Positions 1 through 61,380 of a stretch of 64,000 bases of DNA are shown one piece after another (within the stretch, counting starts at the first letter, position 1; every line of letters starts with the position of its first letter). The notes under the pieces are model-generated. The model was not told the origin of the DNA. It did no database searches and worked only from the letters and a program-made list of their open reading frames with translations. A program made the position numbers and the translations under genes. The stretch comes from Eledone cirrhosa. Taxonomy: Eukaryota. The stretch spans positions 18,910,001-18,974,000 of the forward strand of contig OZ024766.1 in NCBI GenBank assembly GCA_964016885.1. The letters run 5' to 3'.

Positions 1-606
1 TACACATGGGTAACACATACCCACCGAAAAAAAAATGTGCAACCCTCATCTCCAGGAGTACGAAGAATTTGTACCCCTTTCCTCTCTTCCTTTTTTTTTC
101 TCAACCTACAGGCTGATATAGAGAGAAGGCCCAACCACTGGGGCCATTCTCGCCACTTTCACCCACCTTTCATAGAACTTGCTGGGCTACAGCACCTCTC
201 TCTCCATCCTGACTCTTCTTCCAAAGTGGTATTTGAAAAAAAGAATCAGTTGTTGGCCGGAGAGAAAGGTGTCTGACCTCAGCCCTTTCAACCTCTTTCG
301 CCATAGCTATCACACAGGAAAACCGCCTCTCCCTCGTTTTTGAAGGAGGGTGGAAGTTTGATCATGACAATGGACTCGGTGGTCAACTGGATTGGTCCCA
401 CCCGCGACAATAGTCGTTCTACATAGCCCCACAGGTCAGTGACGCCCGGGCAGTGTATGAATGCGTGCGCGACGGTTTCTTCGTCTCGCACGCACCTCGG
501 ACAGATCTTTTTTGCAGGGTCCCTGCCCGGGCGCCCATGTCTGTAGAGCTTGTCTCGAACTGGTAGAGCTCCTCGGTAGCACTGCCAGGCCAGGGACTTT
601 TGGAAG
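1..606 (-). mobile_element. 5'-truncated L1/Tx1-clade LINE, ORF2 C-terminus (zf-RVT-like CCHC) and 3' region, copy A (runs off the window edge)
   Basis: Minus-strand translation AWQCYRGALPVRDKLYRHG...CPRC...ETVAHAFIHCP..W is the C-terminal CxxC...HxxxxC motif of L1/Tx1 ORF2. It is frameshifted downstream, and 1-300 is homologous to 748-1060. Confidence 0.75.
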
Positions 607-628
607 AGATAGATAGATAGATAGATAT

Positions 629-1068
629 CTTTATTTACCATAAAGGCATAAAAAGAAGGGACAAATACAAAGGGGGAGTTTACATATAATCGAGTAAAAA
701 GGGTGTAACATGAAAATAATCGAAAATAACCTCAAAAGGGAGGGGACGTGATGGGGGTTGCACACACCCCCGAAAAAGTGTGCAATCCTTTGCCCGGGGA
801 GCACATGGAGAAGGTGCTCCCCTCTCCTTTACTTCTTTACCTACAGGATGGTATACAGAGAAGGCCCACTTACACGAGCCATTCTCGCCACTATCACCCA
901 CCTTTCATAAAACTGCCGGTGGCCAAGCACCTCTCTCTCCATTCTTATCCTTCTTCCGAAGTGATATCGGAAGAAGTAGACCAGACTATGGCCAGAGAGG
1001 AAGTTGCCTGACCTCAGACCTTTCAATTGTGTCCACCAAACAACCTCTTTCAACATGGCTATTACGCA
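629..1068 (-). mobile_element. L1/Tx1-clade LINE 3' end, copy B (end of ORF2 plus 3'UTR with AATAAA)
   Basis: ORF KEVVWWTQLKG...ERWVIVARMARV is homologous to copy A. The minus strand ends ...ggtaaataaaga and runs into (TATC)n. Confidence 0.7.
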
Positions 1069-5620: not shown

Positions 5621-5676
5621 ACTGCTATATATATTTCGATGATAGCCATTGAATGGCTATGACCTCATCAGGCAGT
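5621..5676 (-). ncRNA. Type-I hammerhead ribozyme motif (PLE/retrozyme-like), family H1
   Basis: Minus strand: actgc-CTGATGA-ggtc atagccat tca atggctat catc-GAAA-tatata-TA^gcagt. Stem I is actgc/gcagt, stem III is palindromic, and AATAAA follows just downstream. Confidence 0.75.
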
Positions 5677-10457: not shown

Positions 10458-11358
10458 CACACACACATATATATATATATACCCAGTGTGTGTTTAGCTG
10501 ATTGTGGAAGTTGGCAAAGAAACAACTCAAAATTAACTAACCCCACCGCACACCACAGTGGGAGGTGGTAGTGGTGGTGGTGGTGGTAGAGGTTGAGGTG
10601 GTAGTGGTGTAGAGGTGGTATAGGTGGTGGTAGTAGTGGTGTAATGATGGTAGAGGTTGAGGTGGTAGTGGTGTAATGATGGTAGAGGTTGAGGTGGTAG
10701 TGGTGTAGTGGTGGTAGAGGTTGAGGTGGTAGTGGTGTAATGATGGTATAGGTGGTGGTGGGGGTAGTGGTGTAGTGGTGGTATAGGTGGTGGTGGTAGT
10801 GGTGTAATGATGGTATAGGTGGTGGTGGGGGTAGTGGTGTAATGATGGTAGAGGTGGTAGTGGTGTAATGGTGGTAGAGGTGGTGTTGTGGAGGTGGTAG
10901 TATTAGTGATAGTAGTAGTAGCAGCAGCAGTGATAGTAGTGGTAGCTACAGTAGCAGTGGTAGCTACAGTAGCAGTAGTAGTATTGGTAGTAGTAGTATT
11001 GGTAGTAGTAGTATTGGTGGTAGTAGTAGTAGTAGTAGTAATAGCTATAGTAGCAGTAGTAGTAGTAGCTATAGTAGTAATAATGGTAGTGGTAGTAGTA
11101 GAAGTAGTGGTCTACTGTCCTAGTTACCTGCTCTATTGATCTTGGCATCTAACCATCTCCCTACCTACACCCATACATCTATATATACACACACGTCTAT
11201 ATAGACATATGTGTATATATACACACACGTCTATATAGACATATGTGTATATATACACACACGTCTATATAGACATATGTGTATATATACACACACGTCT
11301 ATATAGACATATGTGTATATATACACACACGTCTATATAGACATGTGTATATATATAT

Positions 11359-11850
11359 ATGTTACATGGCAGTAAGACCTGGGCATTGTGTGCAGAGGAT
11401 CTACGCAGACTGGAGAGGAACGAGGCTTGCATGCTCCGCTGGATGTGTAATAGTAACATACGTGAACGGCAAAGCATAAACGAACTAAGGGAGAAATTAG
11501 GAATAAGAGGGGTCAGATGTTGTTTACTCGAGAGAAGGCTACGTTGGTACGGTCACGTGATGCGCATGAAAGACGACAGCTGTATAAAAAAGTGCAGGGC
11601 AATAAAGATAGATGGTAGCCACGGAGTAGGCAGACCCAGAAAAACCTGGGACGACTTGATAAATTCCGACCTCACACACTTACACCTCTCCAAGACAATG
11701 TCACTGGACCGAGATCTTTGGCGCTACACAGTAATACAGAAGACCCGCCTTACCTAAATACAAAGTAAAACCTACTACAGTCAGTAGTCACCTCTAACAA
11801 AATACACCCCCGTCCCACTACCACCACCCCATCCACACCACCCCCTTCAA
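11359..11850 (+). mobile_element. RTE-clade LINE 3' end (ORF end plus 3'UTR)
   Basis: MLHGSKTW...LERNEACMLRWMC...RLRWYGHVMRM...GRPRKTW...DRDLWR. The 3'UTR ctaacaaaatacaccccgtcccactacc recurs at ~28007-28060. Confidence 0.9.
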
Positions 11851-20672: not shown

Positions 20673-23600
20673 TTGTTGAACAGGTTCAGTCCAATTCTGT
20701 ACAGCCTCTTGCGCTCCTTGTCCCCGATCCTCGACGTCACGTGCTGGTCCGGGGTGACGCTGATCCGGATCTTCCGCTGGTAGCTGATGCTGTTCTCGCT
20801 ACTCCCGCCGATGCTCACGTTCTCCGAACTCACGTTGTCCGAGCTCGGGCTGCTCGAGCACTGGCCGTCGACGCTCTCCGGCTCGCTCGTCTCCGAGATG
20901 TTGCTCATCCGCTTCACCTCCCCGGCGCCGCCGCCGCCGCCGCCGACCACCGCGCTGCCCAGCCCCCCCACAACTCCCCCGACGGGCGCCACGCCGCCGG
21001 GAGCGACCGCCACGACGCCGCCGCCGCCGCCCTTGTTCATCATCGCCGCCGCGCAGCCGCCCATCACGCCGACGCCCCCCGCGGCGGCCGCGGCCGCCAC
21101 CGCCGCCACCGTCGGCGCGGACGGCGCGCCCGACGACGCGCCGCCGATCCCACCAACAACGCCACCGCCAACGCCGCTCTTCCGCTTCCAGATCGGAGAC
21201 GCCTCGGGGGCGCCGCCGCCGCCGCCCCCTCCTCCACCGCCGCCACCACCACTGCCACACCGGTGGTGGTGGTGCGAGTGGTGGTGGTGGTGGTGTTGGT
21301 GGTGTTGCTGCTGCTGCTTGCCACTCCCGCCGGCCGCCGCGTTCGTGGCGGCGCCGCCGGCGGCGAGCTGCGGCGGGGGCGGCGGCGGCACGCTCCCCGT
21401 CGTCACGCCGCCGCCGCCTCCCCGTGATTTCCCTTTCGTGTTCGTGTAGAACTTTATCGTCGGCTCCTCCGCCGCCGCGTTGCCCAGCAACGAGCCCCTC
21501 CGGTCCCCGAGGCCCGTGTCCTCCGGGGACGCCAGGTCCACCTTGATTTGAACCTCAGACGACGACGGCTGCTGCTGCTGCTGCCGCGGTGACGACGACG
21601 CCGTCGCCGTCACCGTTGCCGTCGTCGTCGTGGAAACGGCGGGAGGGTCCAACTCCATGGAGGAGAGGGGCGAGAGGCCGGCCGCCGACGACGAGCCGCC
21701 CGGCGGCCTCTGATGGTGGTGGTGGTGGTGGTGCCCCGCCGCCGCCAACGACCCAGTCGCAACGACCCCGCCGCCGCCGGCGCTGTCCTGGATGCTGCCG
21801 TCGCTGTGCACGCTGTCGCTGTGGAAACTGTCGCTAAGGATGTCAGTCTCTTTGCTCTCGAGGAGATTCTCGAAGTCGAGGCTGTGCAGGTCGACGGCGC
21901 TCTCCACGGGGGTCGCCTGGGGGGAGTCGCTGGCGCTACTGTCGTTCAGCTCCGGGTAGGAGTTGCGGTTGTTGTTCGGCTCCTGTGTCGCAGCGACGCC
22001 GCCGCCGCCGCCGCCAGGGGTCGCCGTTGTTGTTGTTGTCGTCACGGCCCCCGCTCCGCCGCCGCCGACGATCGTCACCGACGACGACGACGACGACGAC
22101 ACGGATCCCCCCTGGCACACTGCCGCGGCAGGGGCGGCGTTCTGTCGACGGCTGTTACTGCTGCCCGTCACACCGCAGCAAGTGGCGGCGGCCGGGGAGC
22201 CGCTGCTCCCGCCGACGCCCGTCTGCTGCAGCTGCGCTTTGCCGCTGTAGTTACCTCCCTTCTCCGCCGTGCCGCTCTTCTCTCCACCGCCGCCGCTGCT
22301 GTTATCACCGAGGCCCTTCGCCGACGGCCCCCGCCTCTCGTACTCCGCCTCGCCGCCCGCCTCCTCCTCCTCCTCTTCTTCTTCTTCCTCCTCCTCCTCT
22401 TCTTCCTCTTCCTCCATCACGTTCTCACTCAGGTCAATTTCCGCCGCCCTCTCCAGCCTCCTCTTCTCCTTCCTCAGCATCTGCTGCTGCTGCTGATGCT
22501 GCTGCGCCGTGCGCCACAGACGCTCCTCAGCCTTCAGCGACGCCGCCGACGACAACGCCGACGACGTCGTCGCGTCCAGCGTCTGCTGGTGGTGCAACCG
22601 GTTGTCCAGGTTCTTCCGGGCCTCGATCTCCGCGATCCGCTTCCTCACGCTCTCCGACTTCTCCTGCTCCAGCAGCAACAGCTTCTGCTGCTTCGCCGAC
22701 ACCACCGTGCCTCCGCCTCCCAGCGCCAGGGACGGCGCCACCCCCTCGCAGCCAGCTGCGACGAGCGACACCTTCCCTCCCGCGACGGCGGACGTCGCCG
22801 CCGCCAACGACGACAACGCCGCTCCGGTCCCGACGCCGCCGGCCACGATCCCGCACCCACCGCCGCCACCGCCACCAGTCAGGGCGCCGGCCATCGCCAT
22901 CGCGGCCACCGTCGCCATCGACGTCGCCGCCGCGCCGCCGGACTGCTGCTGCTGATGCTGGTGGTGGTGTTGCGTCATCATGTCGCAGCTGATCCTGTCC
23001 GTCCACACCGTGTTGCTGCGGCCCAGCTCCGACAGCCGCTTCGAGAGCCGGCGCTCGCCGACGGAGTTGCGCAGCTTCTCGAAGTTCTTGTTCATGCAGT
23101 GCTTGCGAAACGCCCGCTGGATGACCCGCGCCGCCCTCCGCGCCCTTATCGTGCCGCCGTACTTCCTCTCCAGCATCTCCAGCTGCTTCTCCTGCAGGTC
23201 TTGCGACAGCTCGTACGAGCTGGAGTGCACCCGCGACCTCTTGATCAGCTCATCGTCCGTGCGCTTGAACGATCGCTGCCTCTGCACCTGCTGTCGCTGC
23301 GCCTGGCTGCACGCTCCGCCCGTCACCGACATCAGTCCGGCCGCGCCGCCCAGTCCGCCTCCACCGCCAGTCAACGAGTTCTGGCTGGTGAGTTTCGGAC
23401 GGCCACCTCCTCCGCCGCCTCCTCCGCCGCCTCCTCCTAAACTGCCATTCGAAGACGAAGAGGACACGACCCCCACCACCGAACCAAGAGGCGCGGTGTT
23501 GCTGCAACTGTTGCTGGTTGTGCTGGTGGTGGTGGTGGTGGTGGTGGTGTGGCCAGCGCTGTTTGGCCCGCTCGAGATTTTCGTATTGCCGATGATGGAA

Positions 23601-23906
23601 TTGGTGGTGGTGTTGGTGTTGTTGTTGGTGGTGGTGTTGGTGTTGTTGTTGTTGTTGGTGGTGGTGTTGGTGGTGGTGGTGATGGTGGCAATGGTGGTGG
23701 TGGTGGTGGTGACAGAAGCTACGCTGTTCAGGCTAATTTTGCCGCTGCCTCCACCACCACCACCACCCAGTCCTGGCGGCAGGGGTGGTACTGTTGTTGT
23801 TGTTGTCGACGGCGGCGGTGTAGTGTTGTTAGCAGTGGTGGTGGTGGTCGTGTTTGGATTCGGTTTCTTGCGTGGAATGTCCTCATCCAATCGGCTACTT
23901 GGAACA
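20673..23906 (-). CDS. IQSEC: Large internal coding exon (3234 bp, phase 2-2) of an IQ motif and Sec7 domain Arf-GEF (IQSEC/BRAG/schizo family)
   Basis: Conserved IKRSR...[24 protein letters not shown]-like motif [24 protein letters not shown], and Sec7 start [14 protein letters not shown]. Acceptor ttctcttgtgttttccAG (AG at 23908-23907); donor AA|GTAAGT (20672-20667). The ORF-track 'Met' start and TAA stop lie in introns. Confidence 0.93.
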
Positions 23907-23959
23907 CTGGAAAACACAAGAGAAAAAGAAAAAATATATATATATATATATATATATAT

Positions 23960-24131
23960 ACAAATGACGTAGGACAGAAGAAAGGAAAGGCACAGAAACA
24001 AAGAAAGGAATCCCCAGTCACTGAAGAGGTCACAGAGTGTGTGACGAAAGGACTATGACTATATATAAACAACTATCTGGTTGTGGAACCAACCAACCAA
24101 CCAGAAATTTATAAATTTGCAGATTTGTACA
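23960..24131 (+). mobile_element. Short hammerhead-bearing element (PLE pLTR/retrozyme-like), family H2 copy 1
   Basis: Near-identical copy at 25610-25778 and a diverged copy at 27390-27502. Flanked by a ~45-bp direct duplication ending in (AT)n. Confidence 0.65.
24016..24060 (+). ncRNA. Minimal type-I hammerhead motif, family H2
   Basis: agtca-CTGAAGA-g-gtcaca gagtg tgtgac-GAAA-ggac-TA^tgact. Confidence 0.7.
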
Positions 24132-24260
24132 CTGGAAAACACAAGAGAAAAAGAAAAAATATATATATATATATGTGTAAATGAAGTAATTCCATCGGAA
24201 AAGTCCAGGAAAAAAGAGTGCTCTATGTAGGCAACAGAGCTTAATTATTATTATATATAC

Positions 24261-24806
24261 ATGGAGGCACATGGCTTAGTGGTTAGAGCATTGGCCTTGC
24301 AATCGAAAGGTTGTGAGTTCAATTCTCAGACCGGGTGATGTGTTGTTTCCTTGAGCAAGACACTTTATTTCACATTGCTCCAGTTTACTCAGCTGTAGAA
24401 ATGAGATGATAGGGACTGCGGTCCCTATCATTCCACTGTAAAGTGGTCGTGGAGGTGCCAGGGCAAAAAAAGCACCCAGCACTCATTGTAAAGTGGTCGT
24501 GGAGGTGCCACGGCAAAAAAGCACCCAGCACTCACTGTAAAGTGGTCGTGGAGGTGCCACGGCAAAAAAGCACCCAGCACTCACTGTAAAGTGGTCGTGG
24601 AGGTGCCACGGCAAAAAAGCACCCAGCACTCACTGTGAAGTGGTCGTGGAGGCGCCACGGCAAAAAAGCACCCATCACTCACTGTAAATGAGGTTGGTGT
24701 TAGGAAGGGCATCCAGCTGTAGAAATCAAGCCAGCATCAGTTCCCGTCCCACCCTTGCAAGCAGGGAAAAGTGGACGTAAAATGAAATGAAAATGAAAAT
24801 GAAATG
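24261..24806 (+). mobile_element. Full-length tRNA-derived CORE-like SINE (family A) with 5 internal 49-bp units and an RTE-type tail
   Basis: A box tggcttagtgg (24272), B box gagttcaattc (24315), CORE-like ccttgagcaagacactt...cagtttactcagctgtagaaatgag, and tail cccttgcaagcagggaaaagtggacgtaaaat. Confidence 0.85.
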
Positions 24807-24819
24807 TAATAAACAACAA

Positions 24820-25008
24820 GGGCAGTGGATTGGCAGTATCGGTAGAGGGTCGGACGCCATGCTTTCCAGCATAGTTACGTCCCTTTACGATCTGAGTTCA
24901 AATCCCGCCGAGGTTGACTTTGCCTTTCATCCTTACGGGGTCGATAAAATAAAGTACCAGTAATGCACTGGATAATTGCTGGCCTTGTGCCTAAAGTAGA
25001 AACAATTA
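24820..25008 (+). mobile_element. SINE family M, near full-length
   Basis: tRNA-like head with gagttcaaatcc, and the same body and tail as 18165-18545. Confidence 0.75.
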
Positions 25009-25033
25009 TGTAATAAACAACATAAGGCAATTA

Positions 25034-25093
25034 TTCCATTTACCAGTGGTTTCTTAAAAGCAAAAGGATTTGCTTTCAATCCTCAGAATGAAA
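25034..25093 (-). ncRNA. Type-I hammerhead ribozyme, near-perfect fold (family H3), sense to the IQSEC pre-mRNA
   Basis: Minus strand: tttcatt-CTGAGGA-ttgaaagcaaa tcct tttgcttttaa-GAAA-ccactgg-TA^aatggaa. Stem I 7 bp, stem II 11 bp, GUA cleavage triplet. Confidence 0.8.
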
Positions 25094-25362
25094 AAATCCT
25101 GGTCTGTTTATTGAATATGGATTTTAAAAAACAAAAATGCAATCTATATGAAAGTGAGGCTGGAGAAGGGAGAAGGAAAGGAAAAATAAAATAAAACTAC
25201 ACATGCAAACACACACACAAAAAAACACAAAAGCATACTTACACGCACATACATATATACATATGTATAAATGTACGCATACATATATACATATACACAT
25301 ATATATATATAAAAAAAACGTACACCTACACACACATACACATATATACACACATATACATT

Positions 25363-25394
<32 letters not shown>

Positions 25395-25664
25395 CACATA
25401 TACACACACTCACACATGTGTGTATACAAGCGTACACATACACAAACAGCCATACACACACACATATATATACATATACATACATTCACACAAACATACA
25501 ACATACACATACATGAATGCACTCCTCTACATATTCACACACGCAAATAAATATAAGAAAAAAATATATAAATTTATATTAAAAAATTATATATATATAT
25601 ATATATATACAAATGGCATAGGACAGTAGAAAGGAAAGGCACAGAAACAAAGAAAGGAATCCCC

Positions 25665-25709
25665 AGTCACTGAAGAGGTCACAGAGTGTGTGACGAAAGG
25701 ACTATGACT
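25665..25709 (+). ncRNA. Minimal type-I hammerhead motif, family H2 copy 2
   Basis: Same core as 24016-24060, within the duplicated segment 25610-25778. Confidence 0.7.
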
Positions 25710-25789
25710 ATATATAAACAACTATCTGGTTGTGGAACCAACCAACCAACCAGAAATTTATAAATTTGCAGATTTGTAATTTTATAAAT

Positions 25790-26355
25790 TTATAAATATA
25801 TAATAAATTGAAGTGAAAGCAACTGGTGCGTGTGTTTCTTATTGGCAACATGACCCTCCCAAAGTATAACAATATATATATATATATATATATAGTAAAC
25901 TATATATATATATATAATTTATAATAAATTGAAGTGAAAGCAACTGGTGCGTGTGTTTCTTATTGGCAACATGACCCTCCCAAAGTATAACAATATATAT
26001 ATATATATATATATAGTAAACTATATATATATATATAATTTATAATAAATTGAAGTGAAAGCAACTGGTGCGTGTGTTTCTTATTGGCAACATGACCCTC
26101 CCAAAGTATAACAATATATATATATATATATATATAGTAAACTATATATATATATATATAATTTATAATAAATTGAAGTGAAAGCAACTGGTGCGTGTGT
26201 TTCTTATTGGCAACATGACCCTCCCAAAGTATAACAATATATATATATATATAGTAAACTATATATATATATATAATTTATAATAAATTGAAGTGAAAGC
26301 AACTGGTGCGTGTGTTTCTTATTGGCAACATGACCCTCCCAAAGTATAACAATAT
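25790..26355. repeat. ~120-bp tandem repeat (x5) containing (AT)n
   Basis: ataaattgaagtgaaagcaactggtgcgtgtgtttcttattggcaacatgaccctcccaaagtataac unit. Confidence 0.9.
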
Positions 26356-26640
26356 TAATATATACATATATATTCATATGATTTATTGATTTATTGATAT
26401 TTTATCTGAGTGTCCTGAATCTTCCAGATCGTAATTTTTCGGTCGTATGGTTGATTTTAGACATGATCTATATGTGTTGGTATTTTAACGATAGTTATAG
26501 CTCTGATTTATCTGAATTATTGAGCCCTCTGCCACTCATGTCGAATTTTGTTTATCGTGAACTCGTGCGCCGATTTTTCGATACTCGATTATTCTACTAT
26601 ATATATATACATATATATATATACATATATACAAAAACAA

Positions 26641-27385
26641 GATGGACATGTGATGTACATGGAGGATGGATGACCACTGGGTGAAGAAGTGTCAAGAAAA
26701 TCTAGTTGAAGGAAGACAGAGTAGAGGTAGACCACGAAAAACATGGGCAGAGGTGGTGAGAACAGACCTCAGATCGCTGAAGCTCACGAAGGAGATGACG
26801 AAGGACCGTGACAAGTGGAGAGATGCTGTGCTGCAGGGAGTCTATCCCAGTGGAAGGAAGACACAGTAGAGGTAGACCATGAAAAACATGGGCAGAGGTG
26901 GTGAGAGCTGACCTCAGATCGCTGAAGCTCACGGTGGAGATGACGAAGGACCGTGACAAGTGGAGAGATGCTGTGCTGAATAGGACCCGTCTTTAGTGAT
27001 AGTCACCGTCAGTGATAGAAGAACCGCTAAGTTTATATATATAGATATAGAGCAACCCACAAAAATATAGACGGAGGTGGTGAGAGCAGACCTCAAATCG
27101 CTGAAGCTCACGGAGGAGATGACGAAGGACCGTGACAAGTGGAGAGATGCTGTGCTGAATAGTCACCGTCAGTGATAGAAGAACTGCTAAGTTTATATAT
27201 ATAGATATAGAGCAACCCACAAAAATATAGACGGAGGTGGTGAGAACAGACCTCAAATCGCTGAAGCTCACGGAGGAGATGACGAAGGACCGTGACAAAT
27301 GGAGAGATGCTGTGCTGAATAGGACCCGTTCCCACTCTTGCAAGCAGGGAAAAGCGGACGTAAAATGATGATGATGATGAAGAAG
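26641..27385 (+). mobile_element. RTE LINE 3' end with internal tandem duplications and (GAT)n tail
   Basis: WVKKCQENLVEGRQSRGRPRKTWAEVVRTDLRSLKLTKEMTKDRDKWRDAV is partly repeated about 4 times, ending gcaagcagggaaaagcggacgtaaaat(gat)n. Confidence 0.85.
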
Positions 27386-27415: not shown

Positions 27416-27456
27416 AGTCACTGAGGAGGTCACAATGTTTTACGAAAGCTTTGACA
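27416..27456 (+). ncRNA. Degenerate hammerhead motif, family H2 diverged copy
   Basis: agtca-CTGAGGA-ggtcacaatgttttac-GAAA-gc-TT^tgac. Stem III is palindromic (aaagcttt) and stem II is weak. Confidence 0.5.
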
Positions 27457-28094
27457 ATATATAAACAGCCATTTGGTTATTGAACCAACCAACCGGAAAT
27501 TTATCTATCTATGTATTACTAAAACTCTGTGATTGCTTGCTTGATTGTCTGTAATGTAATACAGCCAAAAGGGGGCATAATAGGGAAATACTTTGAAAGG
27601 GAGTTGACCCGGAAATGGAAATACAAATGGAATAAAACAAGTTTCACGTAAACAGAGAGACAGACAGATGGAGAAAGATAGTGGTTGTGAGAGAGTAGAT
27701 TGAAAGAGGGCCATAGTGAGAGGGAGAGAGAGGAGGAGAGAGAGAGAGAGAGAGGAGAGGGAGAGAGAGAGGGAGAGAGAGAGGGAGAGAGAGGAGGCGA
27801 GAGAGAGAGAGAGAGAGAAAGGAGGCAAGCGAGAGAGAGAGAAAGGAGGCGAGAGAGAGAGAGGAGGAGAGAGAAAGAGAGGAGGAGAGAGAAAGAGAGG
27901 AGGAGAGAGAAAGAGAGGAGGAGAGAGAAAGAGAGGAGGAGAGAGAGAGAAAGCTGTAAAAATTATTTTTAAGTGAACACGATTTTAAAAAATATTTTTA
28001 AACGAACCTAACAAAAATACACCCCGTCCCACTACCCCCACCCCTTCCAATGTAAAGTTATGTTGGTACCACAAGATCCAGTCCTAAATAAATG

Positions 28095-28703: not shown

Positions 28704-28974
28704 TATAAAGTAAAACATGTCCATAGAATCATTTGATAATATATATACATCATTTCTTCTCCCAATTAGCATAATTAACCAGACAAAAAAAATCAATTAG
28801 ACCAGGCTATAAGATTAAAAGGCACCTATGAAGAAACAGTAAATAAATAAATTATAGCAGCTTCTTCACGGCCAACAGCTATAGAATATTTACCCAACAT
28901 TTCAACAGCCCGTGGAAATTAATTAAATATGCAGTCAACCATACACAATTAGGTATAAAATATATATATATAAG

Positions 28975-29145
28975 ATCAAAAGATAGTTAAAAGAGTTCCA
29001 AGTATTTTATAAAATACATGGAACTCTTTTAACCATCTTTTGATATTTTTATATTATTTATACTCGAGTCCTATAAACTGTGGAGTGCTACTTATCTGAT
29101 ATTTGCATTGCTTTATTGTTGCTACAATAAAACTCACCTCTTACA
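28975..29145 (+). mobile_element. Family H5 element copy starting at the hammerhead cleavage site, preceded by an inverted duplication
   Basis: 29009-29145 is homologous to 38938-39072. 28975-29044 is a 35-bp-arm palindrome. Confidence 0.7.
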
Positions 29146-38874: not shown

Positions 38875-38945
38875 TGTTTTATCTGATGAAAACACAAATA
38901 TTATTGCATGATGATATTTGTTTTTGAAATGCGCATAATAAAATA
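38875..38945 (+). ncRNA. Type-I hammerhead ribozyme, family H5
   Basis: tgttttat-CTGATGA-aaacacaaatattattgcatgatgatatttgttttt-GAAA-tgcgca-TA^ataaaata. Stem III is palindromic (atgcgcat). Confidence 0.8.
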
Positions 38946-39104: not shown

Positions 39105-39340
39105 AGGATAACAGATGGGTGAAGAAGTGCCAGGAAATGCCAGTTGAAGGAAGACGTGGTAGAGGAAGACCACGAAAAACATGGGCGGAGGTGGTGAGAA
39201 CAGACCTCAGATCATTGAAGCTCACGGTGGAGATGACGAGGGACCGTGACGAGTGGAGAGATGCTGTGCTGAATAAGACCCGTCCCACCCTTGCAAGCAG
39301 GGAAAAGCGGACGTAAAATGATGATGATGATGATGATGAT
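39105..39340 (+). mobile_element. RTE LINE extreme 3' end with stop codon and (GAT)n tail
   Basis: WVKKCQEMPVEGRRGRGRPRKTWAEVVRTDL...RDEWRDAVLNKTRPTLASREKRT* followed by (gat)n. Confidence 0.9.
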
Positions 39341-45677: not shown

Positions 45678-46162
45678 TTCATCATCATCATTTTATGTCC
45701 CCTTTTCCCTGCTTGCAAGGGTGGGACGGGAACTAATTCTGGCTTGATTTCTACAGCTGGATGCCCTTCCTAACACCAACCTCATTTACAGTGAGTGCTG
45801 GGTGCTTCTTTGCTGTGGCACCTCCACGACCACTTTGCAGTGAGTGCTGGGTGCTTTTTTGCCGTGGCACCTCCACGACCACTTTACAGTGAGTGCTGGG
45901 TGCTTTTTTGCCGTGGCACCTCTATGACCACTTTACAGTGAGTGCTGGGTGCCTTTTTGCCGTGGCACCTCCACGACCACTTTACAGTGGAATGATAGGG
46001 ACCCCAGTCCCTATCATCTCATTTCTACAGCTGAGTAAACTGGAGCAATGTGAAATAAAGTGTCTTGCTCAAGGAAACAACACATCACCCGGTCTGAGAA
46101 TTGAACTCACAACCTTTCGATTGCAAGCCCAATGCTCTAACCACTAAGCCATGTGCCTCCAT
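45678..46162 (-). mobile_element. Full-length family A SINE with 4 internal 49-bp units
   Basis: Head, CORE-like body, array and tail on the minus strand. Confidence 0.85.
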
Positions 46163-58644: not shown

Positions 58645-60868
58645 CATATATAGTGTATAATATATATTGTACATAGTGTATATATATATATAATGTATAT
58701 ATATATACTGTACAAAGTGTATATATAATGTATATATATATTGTACATAGTGTATATATATAATGTATATATATATTGTACATAGTGTATATATATAATG
58801 TATATATATATTGTACATAGTGTATATATAATGTATATATATATACTGTACAAAGTGTATATATAATGTATATATATATTGTACATAGTGTATATATAAT
58901 GTATATATATATACTGTACATAGTGTATATATAATGTATATATATATTGTACATAGTGTATATATAATGTATATATATATACTGTACAAAGTGTATATAT
59001 AATGTATATATATATTGTACATAGTGTATATATATATATAATGTATATATATATTGTACATTGTGTGTATATATATATATAATGTATATATATACTGTAC
59101 ATAGTGTATATATATATATAATGTATATATATATTGTACATAGTGTATATATAATGTATATATATATACTGTACATAGTGTATATATAATGTATATATAT
59201 ATTGTACATAGTGTATATATATATATAATGTATATATATATTGTACATTGTGTGTATATATATATATAATGTATATATATACTGTACATAGTGTATATAT
59301 ATATATAATGTATATATATATTGTACATTGTGTGTATATATATATAATGTATATATATACTGTACATAGTGTATATATAATGTATATATATATTGTACAT
59401 AGTGTATATATAATGTATATATATATTGTACATTGTGTATATATATATATATAATGTATATATATATTGTACATTGTGTGTATATATATATAATGTATAT
59501 ATATATTGTACATTGTGTGTATATATATAATGTATATATATATTGTACATTGTGTGTATATATATATAATGTATATATATATTGTACATTGTGTATATAT
59601 ATATATATAATGTATATATATATTGTACATTGTGTGTATATATATATAATGTATATATATATTGTACATTGTGTGTATATATATATAATGTATATATATA
59701 TTGTACATAGTGTATATATATAATGTATATATATATTGTACATAGTGTATATATATATAATGTATATATATATTGTACATAGTGTATATATATATATAAT
59801 GTATATATATATTGTACATAGTGTATATATATATATAATGTATATATATATTGTACATTGTCTGTATATATATATAATGTATATATATATTGTACATAGT
59901 GTATATATATATATAATGTATATATATATAATGTATATATATATAATGTATATATATACTGTACATAGTGTATATATATATATAATGTATATATATATTG
60001 TACATAGTGTATATATATAATGTATATATATATTGTACATAGTGTATATATATATATAATGTATATATATATATTGTACATAGTGTATATATATATATAA
60101 TGTATATATATACTGTACATAGTGTATATATATATATAATGTATATATATATTGTACATAGTGTATATATATATAATGTATATATATACTGTACATAGTG
60201 TATATATATATATAATGTATATATATATTGTACATTGTGTGTATATATATATAATGTATATATATATTGTACATTGTGTGTATATATATATAATGTATAT
60301 ATATATTGTACATAGTGTATATATATATATAATGTATATATATATATTGTACATAGTGTATATATATATATAATGTATATATATATAATGTATATATATA
60401 CTGTACATAGTGTATATATATATATAATGTATATATATATTGTACATTGTGTGTATATATATATGTATATATATATTGTACATAGTGTATATATATACTG
60501 TACATAGTGTATATATATAATGTATATATATATTGTACATTGTGTGTATATATATATAATGTATATATATTGTACATAGTGTATATATATATATAATGTA
60601 TATATATATAATGTATATATATACTGTACATAGTGTATATATATATATAATGTATATATATATTGTACATAGTGTATATATATAATGTATATATATATTG
60701 TACATAGTGTATATATATATATAATGTATATATATATTGTACATTGTGTGTATATATATATAATGTATATATATATTGTACATTGTGTGTATATATATTG
60801 TACATAGTGTATATATATAATGTATATATATACTGTACAAAGTGTATATATAATGTATATATAGTGTA
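58645..60868. repeat. (AT)n-embedded satellite, unit tgtacatagtg(ta)natg(ta)n
   Basis: Directly visible. Confidence 0.95.
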
Positions 60869-61380
60869 TGCAACAAGGGATCTCAGACTGGCAACTCAAG
60901 CTAGCTGTGGACAAGTGCACCACCATGCATTTTGGGAGTAAAAACCCAGCGTCCACATACTCCCTCCACTGCACTAATATCAAGAAGTCTTCTTGTGAAC
61001 GTGACCTGGGCATTACGGTCAGCAGCGATTTGCGTTGGACGAAGCACATCTCTAAAATTGTCAAGAGGGCCGAGGGTGTCTTAGCATCACTCAGCAAGAC
61101 CTTTGTCAGCCGCTCTCCAGATATCTATTTAAGGCTGTACATGGCTATGGTGTGGCCACACTTAGAATTTAATCACCAGTCTGGAACCCCTATCTTGCTC
61201 AGAACATTGACTGCCTGGAAACTGTTCAGAGATGTGCAACCAAGCGAATACCCTCCATCAGGCATCTACCATACTCTGAGCGCCTTGCTTCCCTGGGCAT
61301 GGATACATTGAAGCTCCGACGCCTGGCAATTGACTTGGTAAACACCCACAAAATTGTTAACCAGTTGTATCCGGCAAGGA

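Follow-up and report, generated by a model that had tools for sequence, protein, structure and literature searches.

The closest described systems are the pLTR hammerheads of Penelope-like elements (PLEs). Metazoan PLE hammerheads are mostly single, with a long helix II and a palindromic helix III, and G10.1-C11.1 is a highly conserved pair in them (Cervera and de la Pena 2014, PMC4209133). They are of type I, and a genome has several families of them; the copies number in the thousands, lie dispersed and mostly alone, and differ by changes that maintain the structure. Metazoan non-LTR retrozymes are non-coding repeats that carry type I motifs with a 2-bp helix III (Cervera and de la Pena 2020, PMC7229834; bioRxiv 10.64898/2026.07.22.740005). 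They form tandem units of ~200-400 bp, have canonical helix sizes of 6 bp and 4 bp, and leave solo copies along chromosomes, many of them in introns; a mussel family is without most of the loop 1-loop 2 nucleotides (PMC7229834). Self-cleaving motifs on the sense strand of introns are represented by the RECK and C10orf118 hammerheads of amniotes (Perreault et al. 2011, PMC3088659) and the HDV-like CPEB3 ribozyme (PMC10274809). Each of these keeps its single locus in different species and cleaves in vitro, C10 via a pseudoknot. The ASBVd (-) hammerhead of a viroid RNA has a three-pair helix III and is borderline between a single and a double hammerhead (PMC6466107).

The motif studied here lies at 25093-25034 on the minus strand of a 64-kb stretch of Eledone cirrhosa DNA, referred to as the window. 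It shared with the PLE pLTR hammerheads (PMC4209133) the type I order, the long helix II, the short palindromic helix III, the dispersed copies with structure-keeping changes and the presence of several families. It differs from them in a longer helix II, of 11 bp, and a longer helix I, of 7+4 bp. Where PLE motifs have an extra nucleotide and G10.1-C11.1 at the base of helix II, it has a U-A pair with a variable 5' letter; its helix III is built of two C-G pairs with a triloop, and no link to an ORF was found. With the retrozymes (PMC7229834; bioRxiv 10.64898/2026.07.22.740005) it shared the type I fold, a helix III of similar size in a non-coding repeat, the solo copy in a putative intron and, with the mussel family, an apparent dearth of loop 1-loop 2 nucleotides. 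Unlike retrozymes, it has no tandem ~200-400 bp units at this locus and no canonical helix sizes. The likeness to RECK, C10orf118 and CPEB3 is limited to position on the sense strand of a putative intron, as the motif is predicted and belongs to a multi-copy repeat; it lies 1.1 kb from its exon, whereas the CPEB3 ribozyme lies 9.9 kb away (PMC3088659; PMC10274809). It resembles the ASBVd (-) hammerhead in its three-pair helix III and differs in being genomic, of type I and equipped with a stem II of 11 bp (PMC6466107). The long helices I and II, the free position 10.1 and the two-GC triloop are a modest variation on known architecture. We regard the motif as probably the conserved end of a dispersed repeat, likely a Penelope-like terminal repeat or a non-autonomous derivative, of which the lone copy in the putative IQSEC intron is predicted to be slow or inactive and is likely without influence on splicing.

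Architecture of the hammerhead motif

The sequence and descriptor scans placed the parts of the motif on the minus strand in the order of an ordinary type I hammerhead. The CUGANGA / GAAA / UH core, three helices and an open helix I were all present in 25093-25034. This confirmed the first-pass annotation, which had claimed a sense-strand hammerhead with an intact core, a 7-bp stem I, an 11-bp stem II, a short stem III and a GUA site. The parts on the minus strand are:

25093-25087 with 25040-25034: stem I, 7 bp including one U-G
25086-25080: core C3-A9, with G at 25082 as N7
25079-25069 with 25064-25054: stem II, 11 bp including one G-U, closed by a tetraloop
25053-25051: G12-A14
25050-25042: helix III, A15.1-U16.1 and two C-G pairs, with a 3-nt loop
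25041: H17, the A of the GUA triplet, with the predicted cut at 25041/25040
25029..25098: extended stem I, a U-U mismatch followed by four pairs of 25095-25098 with 25032-25029 (minimum free energy structure and family changes)

Changes at 25029 and 25032 among family copies preserved the pairing of the extended stem I, which ends at 25029, the edge of the repeat family. Stem II starts from U10.1-A11.1 (U25079-A25054) in place of G10.1-C11.1. Helix III and loop III form a palindrome centred on a C.

Blockwise dinucleotide shuffles of the 64-kb window served as the null model. None of 200 shuffles contained a match under the strict (7/11/2 bp) or the lax descriptor (5/4/2 bp), and the real window contained one. 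The Rfam hammerhead models had no match in the window at the gathering score, and none of the 34 Rfam matches at E<=10 over 24500-25500 was to a hammerhead family. The motif had been called near-perfect; the U-A pair at the base of stem II, the palindromic helix III and the lack of an Rfam hammerhead match qualify this description.

A dispersed repeat family

The motif is one copy of a many-copy dispersed repeat and not specific to this locus. In two RAD DNA runs of the same species, X21 and X22, with reads placed at 80% likeness, the read depth over the motif was ~1,670-1,720 and ~1,550, respectively, compared with ~190-370 in the adjacent 3' flank (25012-25022); RAD sampling is uneven and these reads are not independent loci. 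Variant reads started at more than 100 different places. Most reads ended at 25029 (878/1216 in X21, 845/1189 in X22) and at 25116 (193/337 and 138/257), so that ~88 nt are common to the copies and the flanks differ. Three features were delimited on the minus strand:

25029..25116, minus strand: core common to most family copies, an AATAAA-containing leader followed by the hammerhead (read ends)
25006..25190, minus strand: longer extent in a subset of copies (paralogous contigs), adjoining a (TG)/(TA) microsatellite at ~25200-25500
24819..25007, minus strand: a second, far commoner repeat inserted in the 3' tail of the hammerhead element (depth and target-site duplication)

Paralogous contigs over 25006-25101 and 25069-25186 had 9-14 differences from this copy. 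The copy number of the family was crudely estimated at 2,300-2,500, an order of magnitude only, as the estimate presumes even sampling and a genome of ~2.8 Gb, the value for O. vulgaris. Within the 64-kb window, the family was represented by this copy alone. Neither a tandem repeat nor a joint that goes back was found at the motif in the window sequence or in the reads over the motif. A few reads and contigs switched to the opposite strand at the element, with 3-8 reads per joint. The repeat at 24819..25007, which we take to be SINE-like, was covered by ~27,000 X21 reads over 24978-25004, with read ends at 25007-25009. Its target-site duplication comprises 15 nt (24804-24818 and 25008-25022, 15/15 identical). 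This repeat arrived later than the hammerhead element, and 12 nt separate it from the motif.

Contigs 97-100% identical to parts of this copy were present in organisms B, C and D. An identical 60-nt contig had a depth of 51 in X6 and 3-31 in others, and a 97% contig in X7 had a depth of 245. The motif-matching contigs of these organisms are short and in part deep, and in none of them is the motif connected with unique gene sequence. Conservation of the orthologous locus was considered from these matches and not accepted, because of the depth of the contigs in X6 and X7. The summed family depth over 25012-25130 was ~11-25 in X5, 55-275 in X6 and 14,000-45,000 in X7, a spread that suggests uneven amplification or coverage. 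In X1, depth tripled over the 3' half of the motif, 25032-25053. Loose ends in X1 indicated a sister family with the same helix III and stem I and an unrelated stem II, and six contigs of this sister family showed a U-rich, seemingly non-palindromic loop III (loose end 25045, agreement 0.64). A pattern scan of metagenomes gave 120 matches, which were judged to be due to chance since none folds as a hammerhead or aligns beyond 22 nt.

Variation among family copies

All 34 variants with a frequency of at least 4% were considered, the frequencies being calculated over non-independent reads and without haplotypes; 20 of them fall in 25029-25094. No variant reached 4% at C3, U4, G5, A6, A9, G12-A15.1, helix III, loop III or H17. 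Variants of G8 were confined to reads from two start points, and the other 10 of the 11 fixed core positions were without a variant at this threshold. N7 and all four loop II positions were variable, and loop II also carried indels. The difference between the core (0/11 variable) and N7 with loop II (5/5) was significant (Fisher p 2e-4; 1.4e-3 if G8 is counted), as was that between loop III (0/3) and loop II (4/4; p 0.03). Eight of the 11 changes at paired positions kept the pairing. Two of the three pairing-breaking changes were at position 10.1 and one was in the middle of stem II, where the partner of the broken position changes too in organism D. Position 10.1 (25079) held non-pairing letters in 361/1446 X22 reads. 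As the core and helix III are near-invariant, N7 and loop II vary and most stem changes keep pairing, the hammerhead fold was under selection in the mobile family. This variation speaks for the ribozyme of the source element and not for the copy in the IQSEC intron.

A 4-bp pseudoknot between loop II and 25100-25097 was considered. The two segments are complementary in this copy, but the variation in the family gave no support: U25068 in loop II is an A in 701/987 X22 reads, with no matching change in the 25100-25097 partner. The putative pairing thus depends on a family-minority letter, and 25097-25098 also fit the extension of stem I.

Origin of the family

The family is most likely a hammerhead of the Penelope-like pLTR/retrozyme kind. 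Many dispersed copies, seen as read depth, and a short palindromic helix III are both features of PLE pLTR hammerheads, and both were present. A microsatellite lies on the 5' side of the element. Joints to the opposite strand are also seen in inverted PLE insertions (PMC8557442). Penelope-like elements make up 6.83% of O. vulgaris. Formal Penelope membership is unproven, as no Penelope ORF was tied to the family. Pfam searches of 118/169 non-repetitive frames of the window, leaving out tandem-repeat frames and one long exon-overlapping set, detected no RT or GIY-YIG domain near the motif. Four motifs were absent from one supplement file of Craig et al. (PMC8557442) and likewise from the supplement files of PMC13282606. 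A literature search on octopus hammerheads found no description of this family; the O. vulgaris repeat library and bioRxiv supplements may contain it.

The lack of a linked PLE ORF, the length of just ~88 nt common to most copies and the missing G10.1-C11.1 of the PLE motifs would also fit a mobile family outside Penelope, either a stand-alone hammerhead-bearing SINE or a retrozyme moved by another element. The copy in the window would then be equally incidental. Such an origin is unlikely, however, since neither a tandem repeat nor a joint that goes back occurs at the motif, the microsatellite setting and the strand-switch joints fit PLEs, and animal retrozymes are themselves argued to be PLE-derived (bioRxiv 10.64898/2026.07.22.740005). 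With the Penelope-like assignment, the family adds one more to the known and abundant hammerheads of Penelope-type repeats in animal genomes.

Predicted cleavage competence of the intronic copy

Six hammerhead motifs were present in the 64 kb, on both strands, and the window hammerheads adjoin TA/TG microsatellites. Besides the motif at 25093-25034, four are antisense and one is sense to IQSEC:

24016..24060, plus strand: minimal hammerhead, antisense to IQSEC (descriptor scan), with an identical copy at 25665-25709 and a relative at 27417-27455
38875..38945, plus strand: hammerhead of another family with a palindromic helix III, antisense to IQSEC (descriptor scan)
5621..5676, minus strand: hammerhead of another family with a palindromic helix III, sense to IQSEC and downstream of the exon (descriptor scan)

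The motif at 25093-25034 had been put forward as the best candidate in the window for monomeric activity. This held in relative terms, with +0.4 kcal/mol for its helix III hairpin versus +4.7 to +5.6 kcal/mol, or no possible hairpin, in the other five; in absolute terms, the value is marginal. As a self-duplex with a second copy, helix III reached -8.2 kcal/mol versus +0.4 kcal/mol as a hairpin. Pairing of palindromic helices III between two copies is a hallmark of dimers (PMC3088659; PMC6765202). The invariance of loop III next to a variable loop II points in the same direction. The U-rich, seemingly non-palindromic loop III of the X1 sister contigs argues against a need of the family for dimers.

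All three stems were co-formed in 129/2000 sampled structures of the bare 72-mer and in 0/2000 once 67 nt upstream of stem I (to 25160) were added. The probability of stem I at emergence fell from 0.89 to at most 0.03 with at least 37 upstream nt at 37 C. These values come from nearest-neighbour folding, which ignores the tertiary energy of the core and co-transcriptional kinetics and was run without a known-active control. The lone copy is predicted to misfold with its flanks and to cleave slowly or not at all. Absence of G10.1-C11.1 penalises hammerhead cleavage. A literature search found no paper that quantifies the effect of U10.1-A11.1.

The published rates of related motifs cover a wide range. 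An axolotl motif with a 2-bp helix III and a weak stem II base reached 22% monomer cleavage in 1 h, or ~0.004/min (PMC7229834), and a single minimal PLE hammerhead of S. mansoni showed no cleavage when tested (PMC4209133). Invertebrate type I motifs with a 2-bp helix III cut as monomers at ~0.8/min in coral and at ~0.1/min in mussel, the latter without most tertiary nucleotides (PMC7229834).

Typical minimal PLE hammerheads have a less sturdy helix III than this copy with its two C-G pairs and 3-nt loop. A monomer-competent ribozyme of unusual build could be imagined, with an 11-bp helix II, a 7+4-bp helix I, a free U10.1/A11.1 junction and a two-GC triloop helix III. Sense intronic copies, this one included, would then nick host pre-mRNAs, and the minority U in loop II would complete the 4-bp pseudoknot and could speed cleavage. 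The copy would act as a young, CPEB3-like timer of a synaptic ArfGEF exon, one of thousands of natural tests of exon tethering. We hold this to be improbable. If the family were monomer-active, strand bias and RNA ends of its many intronic copies would directly test the tolerance of slow intron cleavage, and the copy studied here could be a case of recent co-option by a neuronal gene.

In the explanation preferred here, that of a conserved repeat end with a slow or inactive lone copy, the ribozyme would free unit-length RNA from the tandem transcripts of the element itself, aided by the pairing of two palindromic helices III. The copy in the IQSEC intron has neither a partner nearby nor G10.1-C11.1 nor a supported loop-loop contact, and its flanks would compete for stem I. 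Its cleavage in cells would be ~0.01/min or less.

The host gene IQSEC and splicing

The exon next to the motif was assigned to IQSEC, and its boundary was predicted as follows:

20673..23906, minus strand: IQSEC coding exon, 3,234 nt, with phase 2 on either side and a GTAAGT donor, encoding the IQ motif and the sequence up to where Sec7 begins (homology)
23907..23931, minus strand: predicted polypyrimidine tract and AG acceptor of the IQSEC exon (sequence)

The IQ region of the exon matched PDB 7vmb_B with an E-value of 1.1e-20, and the best of 57 protein matches was IQSEC of Octopus sinensis. In the cephalopod-like homologues P0002 and P0003, likeness to the window frame starts at the acceptor, as judged by eye. 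The exon is much expanded by Gly/Thr/Gln/His/Glu runs; ~960 of its codons align to 801 residues of O. sinensis, and two further homologues are shorter still. The exon starts at 23906, and 1,134 nt separate it from the predicted cut upstream. Judging from the acceptor and the longer N-termini of mollusc homologues, the motif region is probably intronic. When the first 130 residues of the 57 homologues were compared by tblastn with the window, the 40 kb that remain upstream gave no further IQSEC exon. As the exon is phase-symmetric, skipping would keep the frame.

At 3.8-1 kb/min, polymerase would take 18-68 s from the motif to the acceptor and 69-262 s to the end of the exon, the figure of 3.8 kb/min being mammalian (PMC10274809). 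For a rate of 0.01/min, the computed fraction cut is ~1% after 70 s and 10% after 10 min; a rate of 0.1/min gives 11% after 70 s, ~39% after 5 min and 63% after 10 min. A hammerhead cut in an intron is reported to leave splicing as efficient as in uncut introns, a block having been seen with a fast HDV ribozyme alone (PMC2995048). With the slow or inactive copy preferred here, ~1% of IQSEC transcripts would be cut by the time the acceptor is transcribed, and exon tethering would make most of these cuts tolerable.

The first-pass annotation had proposed that co-transcriptional cleavage affects splicing of the giant exon. For this, nuclear cleavage of the monomer would have to be so quick that a sizeable fraction of IQSEC pre-mRNA is severed before or during splicing and inclusion of the 3.2-kb exon is lowered or redirected, as proposed for CPEB3. 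The intact core on the sense strand, the best monomer helix III among the six window motifs and a stem I probability of ~0.9 in the bare 72-mer are in line with this, and so are the rates of 0.1-0.8/min of the mussel and coral type I monomers (PMC7229834), the lower of which would give ~39% cut in 5 min. Polymerase needs 69-262 s to get to the end of this long exon, whose skipping would be frame-neutral, and the copy is little diverged from deep contigs in other organisms. That likeness includes multi-copy contigs, however, and does not amount to conservation of the locus; the motif originated as a multi-copy repeat. In place of G10.1-C11.1 it has U10.1-A11.1, with non-pairing letters at 10.1 in 361/1446 X22 reads, and no supported tertiary contact. 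In context, stem I has a probability of at most 0.03 at emergence with at least 37 upstream nt at 37 C, and none of the 2000 sampled structures held all stems. For the CPEB3 ribozyme, which cleaves with a t1/2 of 2-3 min, the distance to the exon is 9.9 kb (PMC10274809); here 1.1 kb leave 18-68 s to the acceptor. Introns cut by a hammerhead were reportedly still spliced, the HDV ribozyme that blocked splicing being faster (PMC2995048). The proposed effect on splicing was therefore unsupported, sizeable cutting of the pre-mRNA by a fast monomer is improbable, and we see little chance that this copy plays a role in IQSEC splicing. An intact sense-strand motif in an intron is not by itself evidence of host function.

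Activation in trans, by family transcripts or circles that pair with the palindromic helix III and cut the intron as a double hammerhead, is very improbable: helix III, with its self-duplex of -8.2 kcal/mol, is invariant across the family, the family has thousands of copies and mollusc retrozyme RNAs can be abundant (PMC7229834), but dimer activity in the published work drawn on here is in cis, from tandem constructs, and low for PLE motifs, and the intron, itself predicted to misfold, exists only briefly as nascent RNA.

The IQSEC acceptor region, made up of a TA run, the polypyrimidine tract, AG and TGT, is duplicated exactly over 46 nt on the minus strand, at 23904-23949 and 24129-24174, and the two copies flank an antisense hammerhead element. 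Splicing to the AG of the upstream copy (24133-24132), which is in frame, would lengthen the exon by 225 nt and bring in two stop codons. This duplication is a more direct potential influence on splicing than the hammerhead at 25093-25034; it may also be an artefact of the assembly.

Other repeats in the window

The antisense hammerhead element on the plus strand has a 2-nt loop III and was present in two 198-nt copies at 23932-24129 and 25581-25778, which are 97% identical, and a related copy was located near 27416-27494. Short tandem arrays of repeat fragments with units of 49, ~121 and ~160 nt occupy 24434-24710, 25757-26373 and 26675-27318. The AT-rich, non-microsatellite segment 28360-29140 contains a 41-nt hairpin that is 93% palindromic at 28972-29047, and it looks like another mobile-element end. 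The sole Rfam match in the window at the gathering score was tRNA-like (31.2 bits, 46094-46151, minus strand). It is probably the head of a tRNA-derived SINE, and similar sequence was found at ~24270-24340 on the plus strand. Remnants of LINEs were represented by one Pfam match:

291..731, minus strand: LINE reverse-transcriptase tail fragment (zf-RVT match, Pfam)

Four further segments on the plus strand, 2600-2845, 11341-11757, 39170-39316 and 60865-61311, we take by eye to be LINE reverse-transcriptase tail fragments as well.
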